Position numbers and translations under genes: made by a program. Positions 1,115-12,754 of a stretch of DNA of 51,361 nucleotides are shown piece after piece (positions within the stretch are counted from its first letter, which is position 1; each line of letters begins with the position of its first letter). Location of the stretch: positions 2,264 to 53,624 of the forward strand of contig JBBEBL010000263.1 of assembly GCA_040882345.1 (NCBI GenBank). The letters run 5' to 3'. The notes below the pieces were generated by a model that made no database searches, had not been told where the DNA came from, and saw only the letters and a program-made list of their open reading frames with translations. This stretch comes from Chloroflexota bacterium. GTDB taxonomy: Bacteria; Chloroflexota; Limnocylindria; Limnocylindrales; CSP1-4.

Positions 1115-1405
1115 GCGAGGGCGAAGTGCCGTGCACCCTCCGTCGATCGTCCGTCACCCGTGCCCACCGTGACGGGCGGCTCGGACCAGGCCGTTCCGCG
1201 GCACCCGACGATGGTCGCTTAGTGCTGCTTCCTTCCGGACCTGACACGGTTCGCGGTTCGCCGCTGCGCGGGACCCGGTCCTCAACGTCGCACCATCGGG
1301 CGGCATCCGGGGACAGAGACCTCGAGAGGGGATTCAGCCCTGCTGGAGCGGATTGCAGGCTACAGGGCACCGCTAGTTCCCCGCCTAGCACGGCCTCGGA
1401 AGGAT
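1115..1405 (-). ncRNA. ffs: Signal recognition particle RNA, long (Bacillus-type, Alu domain plus S domain)
   Basis: The reverse strand contains the universal domain IV motif GUCAGGUCCGGAAGGAAGCAGC (complement of 1223-1248). The 5' part, GUGCUAGGCGGGGAACUAGCGGUGCCCUGUAGCCUGCAAUCCGCUCCAGCAGGGCUGAAUCCCCUCUCGAGGU, resembles the B. subtilis scRNA Alu domain as I recall it. The 5' and 3' ends pair (CCGUGC/GCACGG). It lies directly upstream of dnaX, as in Firmicutes. Ends are approximate (about +/-10 nt). Confidence 0.85.
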
Positions 1406-1576: not shown

Positions 1577-1664
1577 TGGCGGAGAGGGCGGGATTCGAAC
1601 CCGCGACGGGTTGCCCCGAACCGCATTTCCAGTGCGGCGCCATAGTCCACTAGGCGACCTCTCC
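1577..1664 (-). tRNA. tRNA-Ser (anticodon GGA), CCA encoded
   Basis: Reverse complement is GGAGAGGTCGCCTAGTGGACTATGGCGCCGCACTGGAAATGCGG..long variable arm..GGGTTCGAATCCCGCCCTCTCCGCCA. Anticodon stem is CCGCA/TGCGG and the loop is CU-GGA-AA. Confidence 0.92.
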
Positions 1665-1717: not shown

Positions 1718-1803
<86 letters not shown>

Positions 1804-1871: not shown

Positions 1872-2312
1872 TCAGCCGGCGGCCACGGGGGCGGCCAGCG
1901 CCTCTGCCTCGTCCCGGCGGATCCCGCTGACGACCTTGATCCGACGCGGCAATGCCGGATGCTGCGCCAGCTGGATGACCGAGCCCGCGGCCCCGTCGAG
2001 ATCGTTGGGAACGGCGTAGACCAGGGCCTCCACGTCACTCTCGAGAAGGGCCCCGACGCACATCACGCACGGCTCGTGGGTAGTGAAGATCGTCGCGTCC
2101 GCGAGCCGCACCCGACCGAGTCGGCGGGCCGCCTCACGGAGGGCGAGGACCACCGCGTGGGCGGTCGGGTCACCGGTAGCCTCGACCCGGTCGTGGGCCC
2201 GCGCGACCATCGCCTCGTCCACGACGACGACGGCGGCGATCGGACGCTCGCCATGGTCCATGGCGGACTGGGCCTCTGCCAGCGCCTCTCCCATGTACAG
2301 CTCGTAGTGCAT
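1872..2312 (-). CDS. tadA: tRNA adenosine(34) deaminase (TadA/CDA-fold) homologue with a non-canonical active site (HAV instead of HAE)
   Basis: 146 aa. The Zn-ligand motifs are present: DPTAHAVVLALRE and HEPCVMCVGA (PCxxC). Length and position next to the SRP RNA and dnaX are typical of tadA. Codon 54 (complement 2151-2153, GTG) is Val where the family has the catalytic Glu. A TAGCAT box at 2320-2325 lies 7 nt upstream of the ATG. Confidence 0.8.
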   Translation of the reverse strand: MHYELYMGEALAEAQSAMDHGERPIAAVVVVDEAMVARAHDRVEATGDPTAHAVVLALREAARRLGRVRLADATIFTTHEPCVMCVGALLESDVEALVYAVPNDLDGAAGSVIQLAQHPALPRRIKVVSGIRRDEAEALAAPVAAG

Positions 2313-5727: not shown

Positions 5728-5803
5728 TGGCGCGCCCGGCGAGACTCGAACTCACGACCTTTAGGTCCGCAACCTAACGCTCTATCCACTGAGCTACGGG
5801 CGC
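5728..5803 (-). tRNA. tRNA-Arg with anticodon GCG (G34, not the usual bacterial A34/ACG), CCA encoded
   Basis: Reverse complement is GCGCCCG-TA-GCTC-AGTGGATA-GAGC-G-TTAGG-TTGCGGA-CCTAA-AGGTC-GTGAG-TTCGAGT-CTCGC-CGGGCGC-G-CCA. The 7-nt anticodon loop is UU-GCG-GA. The D-loop (GGATAGAG) is Arg-like and the overall layout resembles E. coli tRNA-Arg(ACG). Confidence 0.85.
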
Positions 5804-5835: not shown

Positions 5836-5927
5836 TGGCGGAGAGGGAGGGATTCGAACCCTCGAAGCAGGTTACCCCACTTGGCGGTTTAGCAAACCGC
5901 TGCACTAGACCTCTATGCGACCTCTCC
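5836..5927 (-). tRNA. tRNA-Ser (anticodon GCU), CCA encoded
   Basis: Reverse complement is GGAGAGGTCGCATAGAGGTCTAGTGCAGCGGTTTGCTAAACCGC..long variable arm..GGGTTCGAATCCCTCCCTCTCCGCCA. Anticodon loop is UU-GCU-AA. Confidence 0.9.
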
Positions 5928-6325: not shown

Positions 6326-6356
6326 AAGCAGAGGCCAGACCTCTGCTTTTTTGTTT
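6326..6356 (+). terminator. Intrinsic terminator / attenuator upstream of the aro operon
   Basis: Perfect stem AGCAGAGG (6327-6334) / CCTCTGCT (6340-6347) with loop CCAGA, followed by TTTTTTGTTT. It lies 35 nt upstream of the aroF start codon, so it cannot be the end of a + strand gene. Confidence 0.75.
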
Positions 6357-6390
6357 GGCCCGACCGATCGACGAGGGAGACCGCACCAAG

Positions 6391-7476
6391 ATGTTCGTCG
6401 TGATGGCCGCCGGCGCCGGCGAGGCCGAGGTCCTGGGAGTCAAGAGCCACATCCTGGGAGAGGGACTGACCCCGTACGACCATGCGTCAGGTGGGCGGGT
6501 CAAGATCGCCGTGGTCGGCGAGGTCGGCGGCCGCCGGCCGGCGCTCCTGGAACGGCTGGGGCGCCTGCCCGGGGTGGAATCGGTCACGCCGATCTCGCGG
6601 CCGTTCAAGCTGGTCTCACGCGAGTTCCATCCCGAGGACAGCGTGATCCGGGTCCTGGATGCCGCCGTCGGCGATGGCTCACTCACGATGATGGCGGGAC
6701 CGTGCTCCGTGGAGAGCCGTGAGCAGCTGTTCGAGACCGCCGACGCGGTCAAGGCCGCGGGGGCGACCATCCTGCGCGGCGGCGCGTTCAAGCCGCGGAC
6801 GAGCCCGTACGCGTTCCAGGGCCTGGGGGTCGAGGCGCTTCGCTACCTCGCCGAGGCGCGTGACCGGACAGGACTGCCGGTCATCACGGAGGTCATGGAG
6901 CCATCCCAGGTGGACATCGTGGCCGAGTACGCCGACATCCTCCAGATCGGCACCCGGAACATGCAGAACTACTCGCTCCTGCGTGACGTGGGCCGGGTCG
7001 CGCGGCCGGTCATGCTCAAGCGCGGCTACGGCGCGACCGTCGAGGAATGGCTGATGGCCGCCGAGTACATCGTCAGCTCCGGCAACCCCAACGTCATCCT
7101 GTGCGAGCGCGGGATCCGCACGTTCGAGACGTACACGCGCAACACCATGGACCTTGCCGCCGTACCACTCCTCCACCACCTGACGCACCTGCCGGTGATC
7201 GTGGACCCGAGTCACGCCACGGGCAAGCGCTGGCTGGTCAAACCGCTGGCCATCGGCGGCGTGGCCGTCGGGGCGGACGGCGTCATGGTGGAGGTGCACC
7301 CCACCCCGGATCAGGCCCTGTCCGACGCGGAGCAGCAACTGAACCTTGACCAGTTCCGGGACCTGATGGAGACGCTCGTCCCCGTCCACGCCCACGTGCG
7401 CGGGCTGCGGGGGGACCCGGTCATGTCCGCCGAGGCGATGGGCATCGGCGGGACGGGAGGCCTGGCGCGACATTGA
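6391..7476 (+). CDS. aroF: 3-deoxy-7-phosphoheptulonate (DAHP) synthase, type I-beta with N-terminal ferredoxin-like/ACT regulatory domain
   Basis: [85 protein letters not shown]. It is collinear with the Thermotoga maritima-type DAHPS. SD GAGGGAGA at 6373-6380. Confidence 0.92.
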
Positions 7477-8822
7477 ACATGTCGGATGCCGTCACGGTCC
7501 AGCCGGCCGCGCGACTGCGCGGGTCGTTGAACCTGCCCGGCGACAAGTCCATCAGCCACCGAGCGCTCATGCTCGCCGCGCTGGCCGCCGGTGAGAGCCG
7601 GATCCACGGTGCCGGCGACGGGGCTGACGTCCGCTCCACGGCCGGGATCGTGCAGGCCCTCGGCGTGACCGTGGAGCGCGTCGCCGACGACGGTCGCCGG
7701 GTGGACTACCACGTCGCGTCGCCGGGCGCGGACGGCCTGGCGGAACCGGACCGGATCCTGGACTGCGGGAACTCCGGCACCAGCCTGCGCCTGATCACGG
7801 GGATGCTCGCCGGCCTGCCCATGACGTGTGTCCTGGACGGCGATGCGTCGTTGCGCCGCCGTCCGGTCGCTCGTATCATCGAGCCACTGCGTTCGATGGG
7901 CGCGGTGGTCCATGGTCGACGTCACGATTCCCTCCCACCCCTCACCGTGGTCGGCCACACCCCGCTCCGGGCGGTGGATGTCACGACACCCGTGCCGTCC
8001 GCGCAGGTCAAGTCGGCGATCCTGCTGGCGGGACTCCGGGCCGAGGGGACGACCACGGTCCGCGAGCGGGTCGCGACGCGCGATCACACGGAGCGGATGC
8101 TCCGGGCACGGGGGGTGCCGGTCACGCGTGAGGACGGGCCGGACGGGGCGACGGCATGGATGATGGAAGGAGGCAAGGCGGTGCAGGCGATCGACGAGCG
8201 CGTCCCGGGTGACGTGTCCGGCGCTGCCTTCTGGCTCGTGGCGGGCGCCATCCATGACGACGCCGAGCTCACGCTGCACGATGTCGGCGTGAACCCGACG
8301 CGACGGGCGATCATCGACCTCCTGCGCGCTATGGGCGCCGCCATCGACGAGGTCCCGGTTCCCGGCGCGAGCGCGACGGACGGCGTCGGCGAGCCGCGCG
8401 CGGAGCTGACCGTCCGTTCGTCCGACCTGCACGGCATCGACATCGGGCCGAGCGATGTGGCGGCGGCCATCGACGAGATCCCGATCCTGTGCCTGGCCGC
8501 GGCCAGGGCGACCGGCACGACGACGATCCGGGGTGCGGGCGAGCTGCGCCACAAGGAGTCGGATCGGATCGCGGGCATCATCGCCGGCCTGCGCGCGATG
8601 GGCGTCCAGATCACGGCCCACGATGACGACCTTCGCATCGAGGGCGGCGGGCGCGCTCCGCTCCGCGCGGCCACGACGGACAGCCACGACGACCACCGGC
8701 TGGCGATGACCTTCGCCATCGCCGGCCTCGTCGCCACCGGCCGGACCAGGGTCCTGCGACCCGAGTCGGTCGCGATCTCCTATCCCGGCTTCTTCGACGA
8801 TCTCCAGGGGGTTCGAGCATGA
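7473..8822 (+). CDS. aroA: 3-phosphoshikimate 1-carboxyvinyltransferase (EPSP synthase)
   Basis: [44 protein letters not shown]. The start is TTG at 7473 (overlapping the aroF stop) or ATG at 7479. Confidence 0.92.
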
Positions 8823-9760
8823 CCAAGCGCGTCGTCCTCATCGGGCATCCGGTCGCCCACTCGCTGTCCGGCGCCATGCAGCAGGCGGCGTTCGATGACC
8901 GCGGGATCGACGCCCGCTACGAGCTGTGGGACCGCGCTCCGATCGCGCTGGCGGACGCGATCAAGGAGCTCCGCGGCGACTCGTTCCTGGGCGCGAACGT
9001 CACGATCCCCCACAAGGAGCGCGTCGTGCCGATGGTCGAGAAGCTGACCGAGGAGGCACAGGCCACCGGCGCTGTGAACACGATCACCCGTGAGGGTCGC
9101 CGGCTGGTGGGCCACAACACGGACGTCCCCGGGTTCAAGGTGGCCCTGGACCGGCTCGTCGGCAAGCAGAAGATGCCTCGCCAGGCGGTCGTGCTGGGGG
9201 CCGGCGGCGGCGCCCGGGCCGTGGTCTACGGCCTCATCACGGAGGGCTTCCAGCGGGTCATCGTCTTCAATCGCCACCTGCACCGCGCGGAGGGGCTGGT
9301 CAAGCACTTCGCCCGGAGTGCCAGCCACATGGAGCTGCGGGCGATGCCGTGGCACGAGTCGATCATCGAGTCGGAGCTTGCCCGGACCAAGGTGCTCATC
9401 AACGCGACGTCGATCGGGTTGACCTCCGAGGAGAGCCCGGTCCCCGCGGAGGTGCTGCACGGTGACTTGCTGGTCCTTGACCTGATCTACGCCCGGACCC
9501 GGCTCCTCCGCGACGCAGCGGCCGCCGGAGCATCCGGCGCGGACGGGGAGCTGATGCTCCTCCACCAGGGCGCGGCGGCGTTCACCCTGTGGACCGGACA
9601 GCCGGCACCCCTGGAGCTCATGCAGGCCAGCCTGGCCGAGGCACGGGCCGGCGGACTTCGGTCCGCTGAGGGTGAGCCGACCGGGCTCGCCGCGGACGCG
9701 CTGGCTGCGAGCGCAGCCGGGGCCGGCGACGGCGAATCGGCGGCGGCCGGGGCCGAGTGA
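8819..9760 (+). CDS. aroE: Shikimate dehydrogenase with an Ala/Gly-rich C-terminal tail
   Basis: IGHPVAHSLSGAMQQAAF..GANVTIPHKE..GAVNTI..GHNTDVPGF..VLGAGGGARAV. ATGA overlap with aroA. Confidence 0.9.
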   Translation: MTKRVVLIGHPVAHSLSGAMQQAAFDDRGIDARYELWDRAPIALADAIKELRGDSFLGANVTIPHKERVVPMVEKLTEEAQATGAVNTITREGRRLVGHNTDVPGFKVALDRLVGKQKMPRQAVVLGAGGGARAVVYGLITEGFQRVIVFNRHLHRAEGLVKHFARSASHMELRAMPWHESIIESELARTKVLINATSIGLTSEESPVPAEVLHGDLLVLDLIYARTRLLRDAAAAGASGADGELMLLHQGAAAFTLWTGQPAPLELMQASLAEARAGGLRSAEGEPTGLAADALAASAAGAGDGESAAAGAE

Positions 9761-11085
9761 CCGCGTTCCGTTTCCTCACGGCCGGGGAGTCGCACGGACC
9801 CGCCCTGGGCGCGACCGTGGAAGGCGTCCCGGCCGGCCTCCCCCTGGACGCCGACACCATCGCCGTGGATCTCGCCCGGCGACAGAAGGGCTACGGGCGC
9901 GGCGCCCGCCAGGCCATAGAACAGGACCGCGCGGAGATCCTGGGCGGTGTCCGGCACGGGCGGACGCTTGGCTCACCGATCCTCCTCCTGGTCCGCAACC
10001 GCGACTGGGAGAACTGGACCCAGGTCATGCAGGTCGAGCCCCTGGACGACGAGACCGCAGCTGGGCTGTTCGCCGCAGCCGAGGGCGGCAATAAGCGGGC
10101 GACGCCGGTCACACGGGTGCGCCCCGGGCACGCCGACCTCGCGGGTGCCCTCAAGTACGGATTCAACGACGTTCGCGACGTACTGGAGCGCGCCTCCGCG
10201 CGTGAGACCGCGGCGCGGGTCGCGGCCGGCGCGGTCGCTCGGGCGTACCTGCGCGAGCTCGGGATCGAGGTCTGGTCATTCACCGCGGAGGTCGGGGGCG
10301 TGGCGCTGGACCCGGAGCGCTCCACCCGCTCACGCGAGGAGGCCGACGCGTCCCCCCTGCGCTGTCCCGACGCCGAGGCGGAGGCCGCGATGATCGCCCG
10401 GATCGATGAGGCGCGCAGCCGCGGCGACACCGTGGGCGGCGTGTTCGAGGTCGTCGCCCACGGGCTGCCGGTCGGGCTCGGCTCGTACGTCCACTGGGAC
10501 CGGCGCCTTGATGCCGCCCTGGCCGCCGCGGTCATGAGCATCAACATCGTCAAGGGCGTGGAGTTCGGGCTCGGGTTCCAGCAGACGCGGCGGTTCGGGT
10601 CCGGTGTCCATGACGTGATCGAGGGCCGCACGGACGATGGCCGCTGGGTCCACCGCTCCAACAACGCCGGCGGCCTCACCGGTGGCGTCACGAACGGCGA
10701 GCCGCTCGTCGTCCGCGGTGCGGTCAAGCCCATCTCCACGCTCGCCCGCCCGCTCCCGTCCGCCGACCTCATCAGCGGCGAGGCGGTGGACAAGGCGCAC
10801 TACGAGCGCAGCGACATCAGCGTGGTCCCGGCGGCCGGCGTGGTCGGCGAGGCGATGGTCATGCTCACCCTCGCGGCATCCATCGCGGAGAAGTTCGGCG
10901 GCGACACGATGGACGACGTCCGCGCCGGCATGGCTGCCTACCAGGCGCGGATCGCCACCCCGCCGGCGGCGCCCGTGGCCGGCGGCGTGCGCGCCGCCAA
11001 TCCCCGATCGTCGGCTCCGCCCGTCCCAGCGCCAGCCCACGGCCTGTCCGGCACGGACGAGGCCGGGTCCGGCGGCGACGACTAG
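9757..11085 (+). CDS. aroC: Chorismate synthase with a Pro/Ala-rich C-terminal tail
   Basis: FRFLTAGESHGPALGATVEGVPAG..RPGHADLAG..SARETAARVAAGA..GDTVGGVFE. GTGA overlap with aroE. Confidence 0.92.
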   Translation: MTAFRFLTAGESHGPALGATVEGVPAGLPLDADTIAVDLARRQKGYGRGARQAIEQDRAEILGGVRHGRTLGSPILLLVRNRDWENWTQVMQVEPLDDETAAGLFAAAEGGNKRATPVTRVRPGHADLAGALKYGFNDVRDVLERASARETAARVAAGAVARAYLRELGIEVWSFTAEVGGVALDPERSTRSREEADASPLRCPDAEAEAAMIARIDEARSRGDTVGGVFEVVAHGLPVGLGSYVHWDRRLDAALAAAVMSINIVKGVEFGLGFQQTRRFGSGVHDVIEGRTDDGRWVHRSNNAGGLTGGVTNGEPLVVRGAVKPISTLARPLPSADLISGEAVDKAHYERSDISVVPAAGVVGEAMVMLTLAASIAEKFGGDTMDDVRAGMAAYQARIATPPAAPVAGGVRAANPRSSAPPVPAPAHGLSGTDEAGSGGDD

Positions 11086-11095
11086 GGGACCTGAG

Positions 11096-12754
11096 ATGGA
11101 CCTCGTCCTCGTCGGCCTGCCTGGCAGTGGCAAGAGCGTGGTCGGCAGGCGCGTCGCGCAACGTCACCGGGCGACGTTCATCGACCTCGACGAGGAGATC
11201 GAGCGGACCGACGGGCGCGCGATCCCGGACATCTTCGCCGACGACGGTGAGGCCGCATTCCGGACACTGGAGCGACAGATCGTCGCGGACCTGGGGTCTG
11301 CCGACGACGCCCCCGAGCTTCGCCGCGTCATCGCGACGGGGGGCGGCGCCGTCGTGGACCCGCGGAATCGCTGGCGCCTCTACCGCGGCCGCCAGACGGC
11401 GTGGCTGGACGGCCGCCCGGAGGTCCTCGCCCAGCGCCTGCGACGTTCGCCCCACGTGCGCCCGCTCGTGACCAGCCGCGATCCGATCGGGACCATCCGC
11501 GACCTCGCCGTCCGTCGCGATCGCTTCTACGCCGCCGCGGACCTGCGGGTGGCCGGCGTTCGTGACGTCGGCCAGGTCGTGGCGACGCTCGAGACGAGCC
11601 TGGTCGATCGCGAGGCGGATCCGACCGTGGCCGGGACCGTGCTCCTGCGGGCAAAGACCTCGCTCGGGCGCATCGTCATCGTGGATCACGGTGCCGCCCC
11701 GGAGGTGGACCGGGCTCTTCGACAGCTGGAGGCGCGCCGGGCCATCATCGTCTCTGAGCCGGGGGCCCATGCGGCCGCGGGCGCGCGGATCTCCGAGGCG
11801 CTGGTCGCGCTCGGGTGGGCCCTGGAGACCGTGCTGCTGCCGGAGGGCGAGTCGGCCAAGCGCATGGCCGTCATCGAGGCGGCCGCGAGCGACCTGGCGC
11901 GGCTCCGCGTGGAACGGGACGAGCCGATCGTGGCCATCGGCGGTGGCGCCCTTGGCGACGCCGCCGGCTTCCTGGCCGCCACGTACCTGCGCGGGATCCC
12001 GCTCATCCACATCCCCACGACGCTCGTCGCCCAGATCGACTCGTCCATCGGCGGGAAGACGGCCGTGGACCTGCCGGAGGGCAAGAACCTGATCGGAGCG
12101 TTCCACCAGCCCGCGGCCGTCGTCATGGACACGGCCGTCACCCGGTCGTTGCCAGAGCGCCAGCGGCGGGCGGCCCTGGGCGAAGCGGTCAAGATGGCCG
12201 CGCTCGGGGACGAGCGCCTGTTCGACCTGCTGGAGTCCCATGGCCCGGCCATCGCGCGCGGCGACGACGCGGCGTACGCGACCGGGGTCGTCGCCGAGCT
12301 GGTGGAGCGGAGTGCCTGGGCAAAGGTGGAGATCGTCATGGCGGATGAGCACGAACGATCGGGCGACGGTAGCGGGCGCATCAGCCTCAACCTGGGTCAC
12401 TCGCTGGGCCACGCGGTGGAGGCTGCGGCCGGCTACGGGGACCTGCTGCACGGTGAGGCCGTCGCCTATGGGCTCCGGGCCGCCGGACGGATCGGCGTGG
12501 CGCTGGGGGTGTCCCCGGCGGAGCGTACGGAGCGAATCGGCCGGTTGCTGGACGAGCTGGACCTGGCCCGGACTCCCCTCCCCTACGGCCTGGACACGGT
12601 GCTGGACCACCTGGCCGCGGACAAGAAGCACAGCGGCGGTCGACTGCGCTGGGTCCTGCCCACGGCCACGGGCGTCGAGGTCCGGGCCGACGTCCCAGAC
12701 GAGATCGTGCGCGAGGCCGCCGGCTCGCTGCTCGCCACGGGAGCGACTCGATGA
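11096..12754 (+). CDS. aroKB: Bifunctional shikimate kinase / 3-dehydroquinate synthase (AroK-AroB fusion)
   Basis: The N-terminus MDLVLVGLPGSGKSVVGRRVA..FIDLD..FRTLE is AroK (P-loop). From about residue 190, EGESAKRM..IGGGALGDAAGFLAATYLRGIPLIHIPTTLVAQIDSSIGGKTAV..NLGHSLGHAVE is AroB. It is a single frame. The track ORF's upstream part overlaps aroC in another frame. Confidence 0.9.
   Translation: MDLVLVGLPGSGKSVVGRRVAQRHRATFIDLDEEIERTDGRAIPDIFADDGEAAFRTLERQIVADLGSADDAPELRRVIATGGGAVVDPRNRWRLYRGRQTAWLDGRPEVLAQRLRRSPHVRPLVTSRDPIGTIRDLAVRRDRFYAAADLRVAGVRDVGQVVATLETSLVDREADPTVAGTVLLRAKTSLGRIVIVDHGAAPEVDRALRQLEARRAIIVSEPGAHAAAGARISEALVALGWALETVLLPEGESAKRMAVIEAAASDLARLRVERDEPIVAIGGGALGDAAGFLAATYLRGIPLIHIPTTLVAQIDSSIGGKTAVDLPEGKNLIGAFHQPAAVVMDTAVTRSLPERQRRAALGEAVKMAALGDERLFDLLESHGPAIARGDDAAYATGVVAELVERSAWAKVEIVMADEHERSGDGSGRISLNLGHSLGHAVEAAAGYGDLLHGEAVAYGLRAAGRIGVALGVSPAERTERIGRLLDELDLARTPLPYGLDTVLDHLAADKKHSGGRLRWVLPTATGVEVRADVPDEIVREAAGSLLATGATR

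Follow-up and report, generated by a model that had tools for sequence, protein, structure and literature searches.

Background

In bacteria, inosine at position 34 (I34) of tRNA-Arg is generally described as essential and almost universal. It is made by TadA, the enzyme that also serves as the scaffold of adenine base editors, through editing of tRNA-Arg(ACG) to ICG. In the Mycoplasma pneumoniae group of the Mollicutes, the ACG tRNA has been replaced by a GCG tRNA, a UCG tRNA has been gained and tadA has been lost (PMC3711424). According to a review, all sequenced Thermotogae and Spirochaetes also carry GCG instead of ACG (PMC8007984). In the five clade comparisons of Diwan and Agashe (2018), whose stated assumption was that every TadA homologue they detected is functional, loss of the inosine modification goes together with loss of the ACG tRNA and with the presence of GCG and UCG tRNAs (PMC6063277). 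A preliminary description of the locus studied here, made from the DNA sequence alone, had treated loss of the TadA/ACG system mainly as a matter of Mollicutes, a background that these published clades show to be too narrow. A related change is known from eukaryotes, where replacement of the catalytic Glu by Val (E-to-V) is the hallmark of the ADAT3 subunit of the tRNA deaminase (PMC8216470, PMC7713142).

Here we describe a tRNA-Arg(GCG) gene and a TadA homologue with the motif HAV in place of HAE in a window (the whole stretch of DNA analysed, 51,361 nt) from the Chloroflexota class Limnocylindria. As in the Mycoplasma pneumoniae group, where a UCG tRNA covers both CGA and CGG, a G34 tRNA-Arg appears to have taken the place of an A34 tRNA-Arg, with I34 given up. 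The setting differs from that of the Mollicutes, which are AT-rich parasites with reduced genomes that have deleted tadA and lost the CCG tRNA. Limnocylindria have ~70% GC, use CGC and CGG as dominant Arg codons, and are represented by contigs from soil and other environmental metagenomes; they keep a tadA orthologue that is well conserved and predicted to be catalytically dead, and their UCG tRNA is a prediction only. We also take Limnocylindria to be free-living.

With the Thermotogae, the Spirochaetes and the clades of Diwan and Agashe, Limnocylindria share a clade-wide tRNA-Arg(GCG), apparently in place of ACG; surveys that score TadA by the presence of a homologue would count them as I34-positive. 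Archaea, which have GCG, UCG and CCG tRNAs and no A34 deaminase, use the same wobble strategy for CGU and CGC, but the Limnocylindria tRNA body is nearly identical to that of bacterial ACG and CCG tRNA-Arg and lies in a bacterial tRNA slot. The HAV protein resembles ADAT3/Tad3 in being derived from TadA, in carrying Val for the catalytic Glu, in keeping the zinc ligands and in being conserved as an apparent pseudo-enzyme. ADAT3 carries an additional N-terminal domain and acts on many A34 tRNAs together with its catalytic partner ADAT2, whereas the HAV protein has 146 aa, no extra domain and no known partner, and the only known type of substrate, an A34 tRNA-Arg, appears to be gone. A TadA-independent G34 tRNA-Arg is a known phenomenon, found here in a new high-GC lineage; what goes beyond the precedents is the conserved TadA orthologue, predicted from its residues to be catalytically dead. 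Our literature search returned nothing on the tRNA-Arg of Limnocylindria or Chloroflexota, and nothing on a bacterial E-to-V TadA.

A tRNA-Arg gene with a GCG anticodon

ARAGORN identified five tRNA genes in the window, among them a 76-nt tRNA-Arg with anticodon gcg and an encoded CCA at 5728-5803 on the minus strand (GCGCCCGTAGCTCAGTGGATAGAGCGTTAGGTTGCGGACCTAAAGGTCGTGAGTTCGAGTCTCGCCGGGCGCGCCA). The Rfam tRNA model RF00005 matched 5731-5803 (-) with 69.9 bits and E = 2.6e-13, against a gathering score of 29, and the gene has the 7/4/5/5-bp stems of a tRNA along with this score above the gathering threshold; its centroid fold is the standard cloverleaf. Direct reading of the minus strand gave the anticodon stem TTAGG/CCTAA and the loop U32 U33 G34 C35 G36 G37 A38, in agreement with the stem and the loop UU-GCG-GA that had been folded by hand in the preliminary description, whose Arg isotype and GCG anticodon are likewise borne out by ARAGORN, the Rfam score and the loop. 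ArgRS identity is conferred by C35 and G36 of an NCG anticodon and by A20 of the D-loop; C35, G36 and A20 are all present here (D-loop AGTGGATA), and ARAGORN assigned the isotype Arg. A promoter scan 5′ of the tRNA pair formed with the upstream tRNA-Ser found no sigma-70-type site and is uninformative at 71% GC.

The window has a GC content of 69-74%, and its proteins have close homologues that bear the names Chloroflexota, Candidatus Limnocylindria or Limnocylindrales. Starting from the neighbouring TadA-like protein, we retrieved nine more loci, each from an independent assembly. Among them are two long ENA contigs (ERZ25039565 contig_4554, 2.57 Mb, and ERZ25039603 contig_6991, 1.68 Mb), a pair of NCBI MAGs (Ca. 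Limnocylindria and Ca. Limnocylindrales by name) and two deep branches in which the TadA-like protein is ~52-63% identical to that of the window. In all 10 loci, the window included, tRNA-Ser(GCU) is followed by tRNA-Arg(GCG); in the window the tRNA-Ser(GCU), found by both ARAGORN and Rfam, lies at 5836-5927 (-), 32 nt upstream of tRNA-Arg(GCG) on the same strand. The A34 of the TadA substrate tRNA-Arg(ACG) is absent throughout, with G34 in the window and in the 9 other loci.

Six tRNAs from these loci, comprising five distinct sequences, were aligned for analysis of covariation. Every helix cell is paired (100%) across the 5 distinct sequences, and five pairs (2:71, 28:42, 50:64, 51:63 and 52:62) are changed on both sides, a number reached in 0 of 500 shuffles, while the anticodon loop is invariant. 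With full pairing, compensatory changes and an unchanging loop, tRNA-Arg(GCG) is a functional tRNA gene under selection, and G34 is fixed in the lineage. We give a negligible probability to the view that G34 stems from an error of assembly or sequencing, or that the gene is a tRNA pseudogene: the rarity of GCG in bacteria is the sole point in its favour, and it is opposed by the occurrence of G34 in ten independent assemblies (ENA, NCBI and the window), by the complete pairing with its compensatory changes, and by the high Rfam score.

Genomic slot and origin of the tRNA

On sequence comparison, the body of tRNA-Arg(GCG) belongs to the bacterial type. Over 32 nt that reach from the D-arm across the anticodon arm and take in the entire anticodon stem, it matches a gammaproteobacterial tRNA-Arg(ACG) everywhere but at 32, 34 and 37 in the loop, and two Saccharibacteria CCG tRNAs differ from it over these 32 nt at position 34 alone. 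Transfer of the gene from archaea was considered and rejected because of this bacterial-type body. The genomic slot is bacterial as well. In the annotation of E. coli K-12, serV (tRNA-Ser(GCU)) is followed by argV, argY, argZ and argQ, all of them ACG, and since argV(ACG) lies directly downstream of serV in E. coli, the Limnocylindria G34 gene occupies the ACG slot. The order serV-argV was taken from annotation, as a blastn search with the tRNA pair against E. coli genomes returned nothing.

We scanned 185,579 species representatives for twins of the gene, that is, for an A34, C34 or U34 version of the exact anticodon arm. There were three matches in all, two in Saccharibacteria (CCG) and one in a gammaproteobacterium (ACG). 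No twin with A34, C34 or U34 was found in Chloroflexota among these representatives, a result that applies to this arm, since the scan would miss any ACG gene whose arm differs. The simplest origin would be a single A-to-G transition at position 34 of an ancestral ACG gene, and the same simple mutation from A34 to G34 was proposed for Mycoplasma by Yokobori et al. 2013 (PMC3711424). The ACG-to-GCG direction is taken here from the literature, from what is the rule in bacteria generally and from the slot in E. coli, rather than from an outgroup class within Chloroflexota. Alternatively, tRNA-Arg(GCG) may derive from a CCG gene, as its body is very close to the Saccharibacteria CCG tRNA. A tRNA-Arg(CCG) with the same D-arm was also seen at 1127-1203 of locus L006, a 524-kb contig from a viral collection (IMGVR_UViG_3300037418_001546).

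Active site of the TadA homologue

The TadA homologue is encoded at 1872-2312 (-) as a protein of 146 aa, characterized by its ORF, profile score, structure-sequence alignment and a comparison of residues. It aligns without gaps and over its full length with solved TadA structures (E = 1e-27 to 1e-31), with the CDA fold, and its NCBIfam TadA score of 118.6 bits falls short of the model's equivalog cutoff (150). At the position of the catalytic Glu of the solved structures (E59) it has Val, giving HAV for HAE. We compared 114 HAV proteins with 166 canonical TadAs, and the catalytic motif is HAV in 114/114 of the family alignment versus HAE in 166/166 of the canonical set. The zinc ligands, His and PCxxC, are kept, with H52, C82 and C85 invariant.

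Further changes surround the active site. In E. coli numbering, N46D (100%), V28R, G31A, R98D and H128R are fixed in the HAV family, N127P is found in 95% and D108N in 87% of its members, and the proteins end before the C-terminal FF..RR helix, so that the RNA-binding helix is truncated and F148, F149, R152 and R153 are missing. Among the residues affected, N46, D108, F148, F149, R152 and R153 are invariant in canonical TadA, and we take them to line the substrate pocket or RNA groove in the TadA-RNA structure. Given these losses and the lack of an A34 substrate, the HAV protein would not qualify as a tRNA A34 deaminase of any established type; it is predicted to be catalytically dead and unable to make inosine in the known way. 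The HAV family also has invariant residues of its own that lack a counterpart in canonical TadAs (R23, A26, D41, I75, F76, D93 and R123 in window numbering, P0001-P0148), and its D108N is reportedly the mutation that arose first in the directed evolution of TadA towards a DNA adenine base editor. The private invariant residues together with D108N hint at a new function rather than a mere loss.

Distribution, position and conservation of the TadA homologue

The HAV motif is present in 120/120 of the closest homologues, the best 120 of 3461 TadA-like matches. A search of 1.84 billion cluster representatives (50% clusters) found HAV in every match of at least 52% identity that has the motif region, some of the matches in this range being fragments that do not reach it, while canonical HAE proteins start at 49% identity to the window protein. 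In a neighbour-joining tree the HAV sequences form one clade. The HAV TadA pointed out in the preliminary description is accordingly real and fixed across the lineage, as judged by the structure alignment and by these two sets of homologues.

The genomic context is equally stable. Downstream of the TadA gene lie tRNA-Ser(CGA) at 1718-1803 (-), directly adjacent as in the related loci L001-L005, L010, L132, L134 and L135, then tRNA-Ser(GGA) at 1577-1664 (-), both found by ARAGORN and Rfam and the latter also supported by related loci, and the large bacterial SRP RNA at 1129-1393 (-) (Rfam RF01854, 165.7 bits). They belong to a conserved run of tadA, two tRNA-Ser genes, large SRP RNA, dnaX, ybaB and recR, the last three genes being seen in related loci. 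This run is also the position of tadA in Bacillus subtilis, and by its place in it the HAV gene looks like the positional orthologue of tadA and not like a side copy.

The gene is not decaying. Between genomes the TadA homologue is 82-86% identical, like PFK, DAHP synthase, shikimate dehydrogenase and chorismate synthase, and the dN/dS of HAV tadA is 0.06-0.27, which indicates purifying selection; this housekeeping-like conservation and the low dN/dS argue against decay. In the deep branch L010, where the canonical segment E-x-P-V-G-A-V is retained, both HAV and G34 are already present, which makes the E-to-V and A34-to-G34 changes early events. 

One account of such conservation is that the HAV protein serves as the non-catalytic, ADAT3-like partner in a heterodimer with a second deaminase that edits another A34 tRNA. 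The same E-to-V change defines ADAT3 (PMC8216470, PMC7713142), and the strong purifying selection shows that the HAV protein does something, but there is no A34 tRNA among the 8 different tRNA species in these loci and no partner gene or second deaminase in the conserved 20-kb neighbourhoods, and the lost C-terminal RNA-binding helix and Asn46 speak against canonical binding of an anticodon loop, so that we consider this account very improbable. Another reading is a role outside deamination: the HAV TadA orthologue may be a repurposed zinc protein with a new non-deaminase function, a bacterial parallel to the ADAT3 pseudo-deaminase and no relic, a reading to which we give slightly less than an even chance. 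The protein would then have been kept class-wide long after its only known substrate, the A34 of tRNA-Arg, had mutated away, which we hold to be nearly as probable as not.

Several sequences related to the TadA homologue deserve separate mention. In L010 the TadA-like gene (10001-10474) is frameshifted near residue 104, after which the C-terminal part is read in a different frame. In L003 and L005, which come from the same ENA study as L010, PFK is likewise split, and indel errors of the long-read type are therefore as likely as true pseudogenisation for this frameshift. A singleton TadA, P0172 (L011 3276-3740, on a contig of 61% GC), has HAV together with the canonical EVPVGAV and the C-terminal F..RR helix; its neighbourhood differs, with an arginine deiminase, a thioredoxin-reductase-like gene and no tRNA nearby, and its HAV reflects either an independent E-to-V event or a single-base error of GAG to GTG. 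P0156, a protein of 158 aa (L133 596-1072, from a soil contig of 1.5 kb), resembles a RibD-type deaminase with intact HAE in its N-terminal half and is nearly identical to the HAV family in its C-terminal half; it is probably an assembly chimera. Its place as sister of the HAV clade in the distance tree was rejected for this chimeric make-up. P0149/P0279, considered as the closest canonical TadA outgroup, were set aside as Syntrophobacteraceae, which are no phylogenetic neighbour.

Arginine codon usage and the decoding of CGA

Across 36 window ORFs with 1158 Arg codons, CGC is the dominant Arg codon (547, or 47%), followed by CGG (356), CGA (108), CGU (88), AGG (42) and AGA (17). The preliminary description had anticipated the dominance of CGC and had singled out CGA usage as informative. 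CGA accounts for 9.8% of CGN codons in the window, where no other four-fold box has so high a share of A-ending codons, and for 10-15% in related loci; the counts in Table 1 of PMC3711424 give ~4% for Streptomyces avermitilis. When seven genes of the window (six housekeeping enzymes and the TadA homologue) were compared with their orthologues, CGA aligned with Arg at 54/61 positions, where it interchanges with CGG, CGC and CGU. CGA is thus an ordinary Arg codon in Limnocylindria and is not avoided.

An ordinary Arg codon that G34 is unable to read calls for a U34 tRNA-Arg or, less likely, one with A34, and we predict a tRNA-Arg(UCG) elsewhere in the genome. A pattern scan of metagenomes for tRNA-Arg(UCG) with an Arg-type D-arm returned at least 120 loci (L012-L131). 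None of these could be linked to Limnocylindria, as ranking by GC, tetranucleotides and codon usage did not discriminate, and there was no orthologous overlap of the UCG loci listed with known Limnocylindria loci. The best-ranked candidates were assigned by exact look-up to Vicinamibacteria and Rokubacteria and were rejected; such contigs include L056 (Vicinamibacteria), where the tRNA-Arg(UCG) adjoins tRNA-His, and L122 (Rokubacteria). In its own right, the scan indicates that tRNA-Arg(UCG) with a bacterial Arg-type D-arm is common in environmental metagenomes, and from the many UCG genes we infer that, among uncultured bacteria, U34 Arg tRNAs for CGN codons are not as rare as the tRNA sets given in textbooks would imply.

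The free use of CGA would also be explained by I34, if the GCG tRNA were an extra isoacceptor and a tRNA-Arg(ACG) with a second, intact TadA elsewhere in the genome read CGU, CGC and CGA. The HAV count, which covers the best 120 of 3461 TadA-like matches, leaves room for such an enzyme. We nonetheless regard this arrangement as unlikely: the flanks of the HAV gene (two tRNA-Ser genes, SRP RNA, dnaX, ybaB and recR) make it look like the positional tadA orthologue, the G34 tRNA sits in the ACG slot after tRNA-Ser(GCU), an A34 twin of the arm is found in no Chloroflexota species representative, and in surveyed bacteria GCG and ACG rarely coexist, with GCG tracking the loss of I34 (PMC6063277).

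Proposed decoding scheme

Our preferred reading, which we think probable, is that tRNA-Arg(GCG) has replaced ACG in Limnocylindria, that the TadA orthologue is dead and that A-to-I wobble editing has been abandoned. In this scheme tRNA-Arg(GCG) would have taken the place of the tRNA-Arg(ACG) that is usual in bacteria, and G34 would form a Watson-Crick pair with CGC and a G-U wobble pair with CGU, neither of which requires editing. CGG would presumably be read by a CCG tRNA and CGA by the expected UCG tRNA, giving a scheme of G34 and U34 (and C34) as in archaea and in the bacterial clades that lost TadA. On the side of the enzyme, the tadA orthologue appears to have lost the proton-shuttle Glu (E59V), Asn46 and the C-terminal RNA-binding helix, losses through which inosine-34 would no longer be made; I34 would then be absent from the tRNA-Arg of Limnocylindria. 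The HAV protein would have been retained by purifying selection, presumably for another role.

The preliminary description had suggested a lineage that has abandoned, or is abandoning, this editing. Abandonment fits all tests. The suggestion of an ongoing loss did not hold up, as G34 and E-to-V are already found in deep branches with TadA-like proteins ~52-63% identical to that of the window, and TadA is under purifying selection; with both changes at this depth, the loss of I34 would be old and finished and not in progress.

A high-GC class that is abundant in the environment (soil and freshwater) would thereby join the short list of bacteria without I34, and since Limnocylindria are presumably free-living as well, genome reduction or AT bias would not be the general cause of such losses. 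The locus also calls for caution in annotation, as scoring a modification enzyme by the presence of a homologue misleads here: P0003, a homologue 96% identical to the window protein, is named "tRNA adenosine(34) deaminase TadA" by NCBI, and many other HAV homologues are named "tRNA(adenine34) deaminase" by JGI. If the HAV protein is indeed repurposed, homology-based surveys of tRNA modification wrongly count this lineage as inosine-making, and the conserved and apparently dead TadA offers a natural experiment on the uses of the TadA fold once deamination is lost.

Genomic neighbourhood

The SRP RNA of the window is of the large bacterial type and not of the small 4.5S type, and judging by the related loci L002 and L003 it lies between the tRNA-Ser pair and dnaX. 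Directly upstream of the tRNA-Ser(GCU)/tRNA-Arg(GCG) pair, window positions 6355-12754 (+) hold a compact shikimate-pathway operon that encodes DAHP synthase, EPSP synthase, shikimate dehydrogenase, chorismate synthase and a fusion of shikimate kinase with dehydroquinate synthase; start and stop codons overlap, and the operon is conserved in related loci. The tRNA-Ser(GCU)/tRNA-Arg(GCG) region itself is a hot spot of insertion. In L003-L005 the two tRNAs are ~1.2 kb apart with a 282-aa ORF between them, and in L004 and L005 a tRNA-Arg(CCU) lies nearby. In L134 (2259-5777), the tRNA pair is preceded by a transposase-like HTH gene and followed by genes for a BglII-type endonuclease and an MT-A70 methylase.
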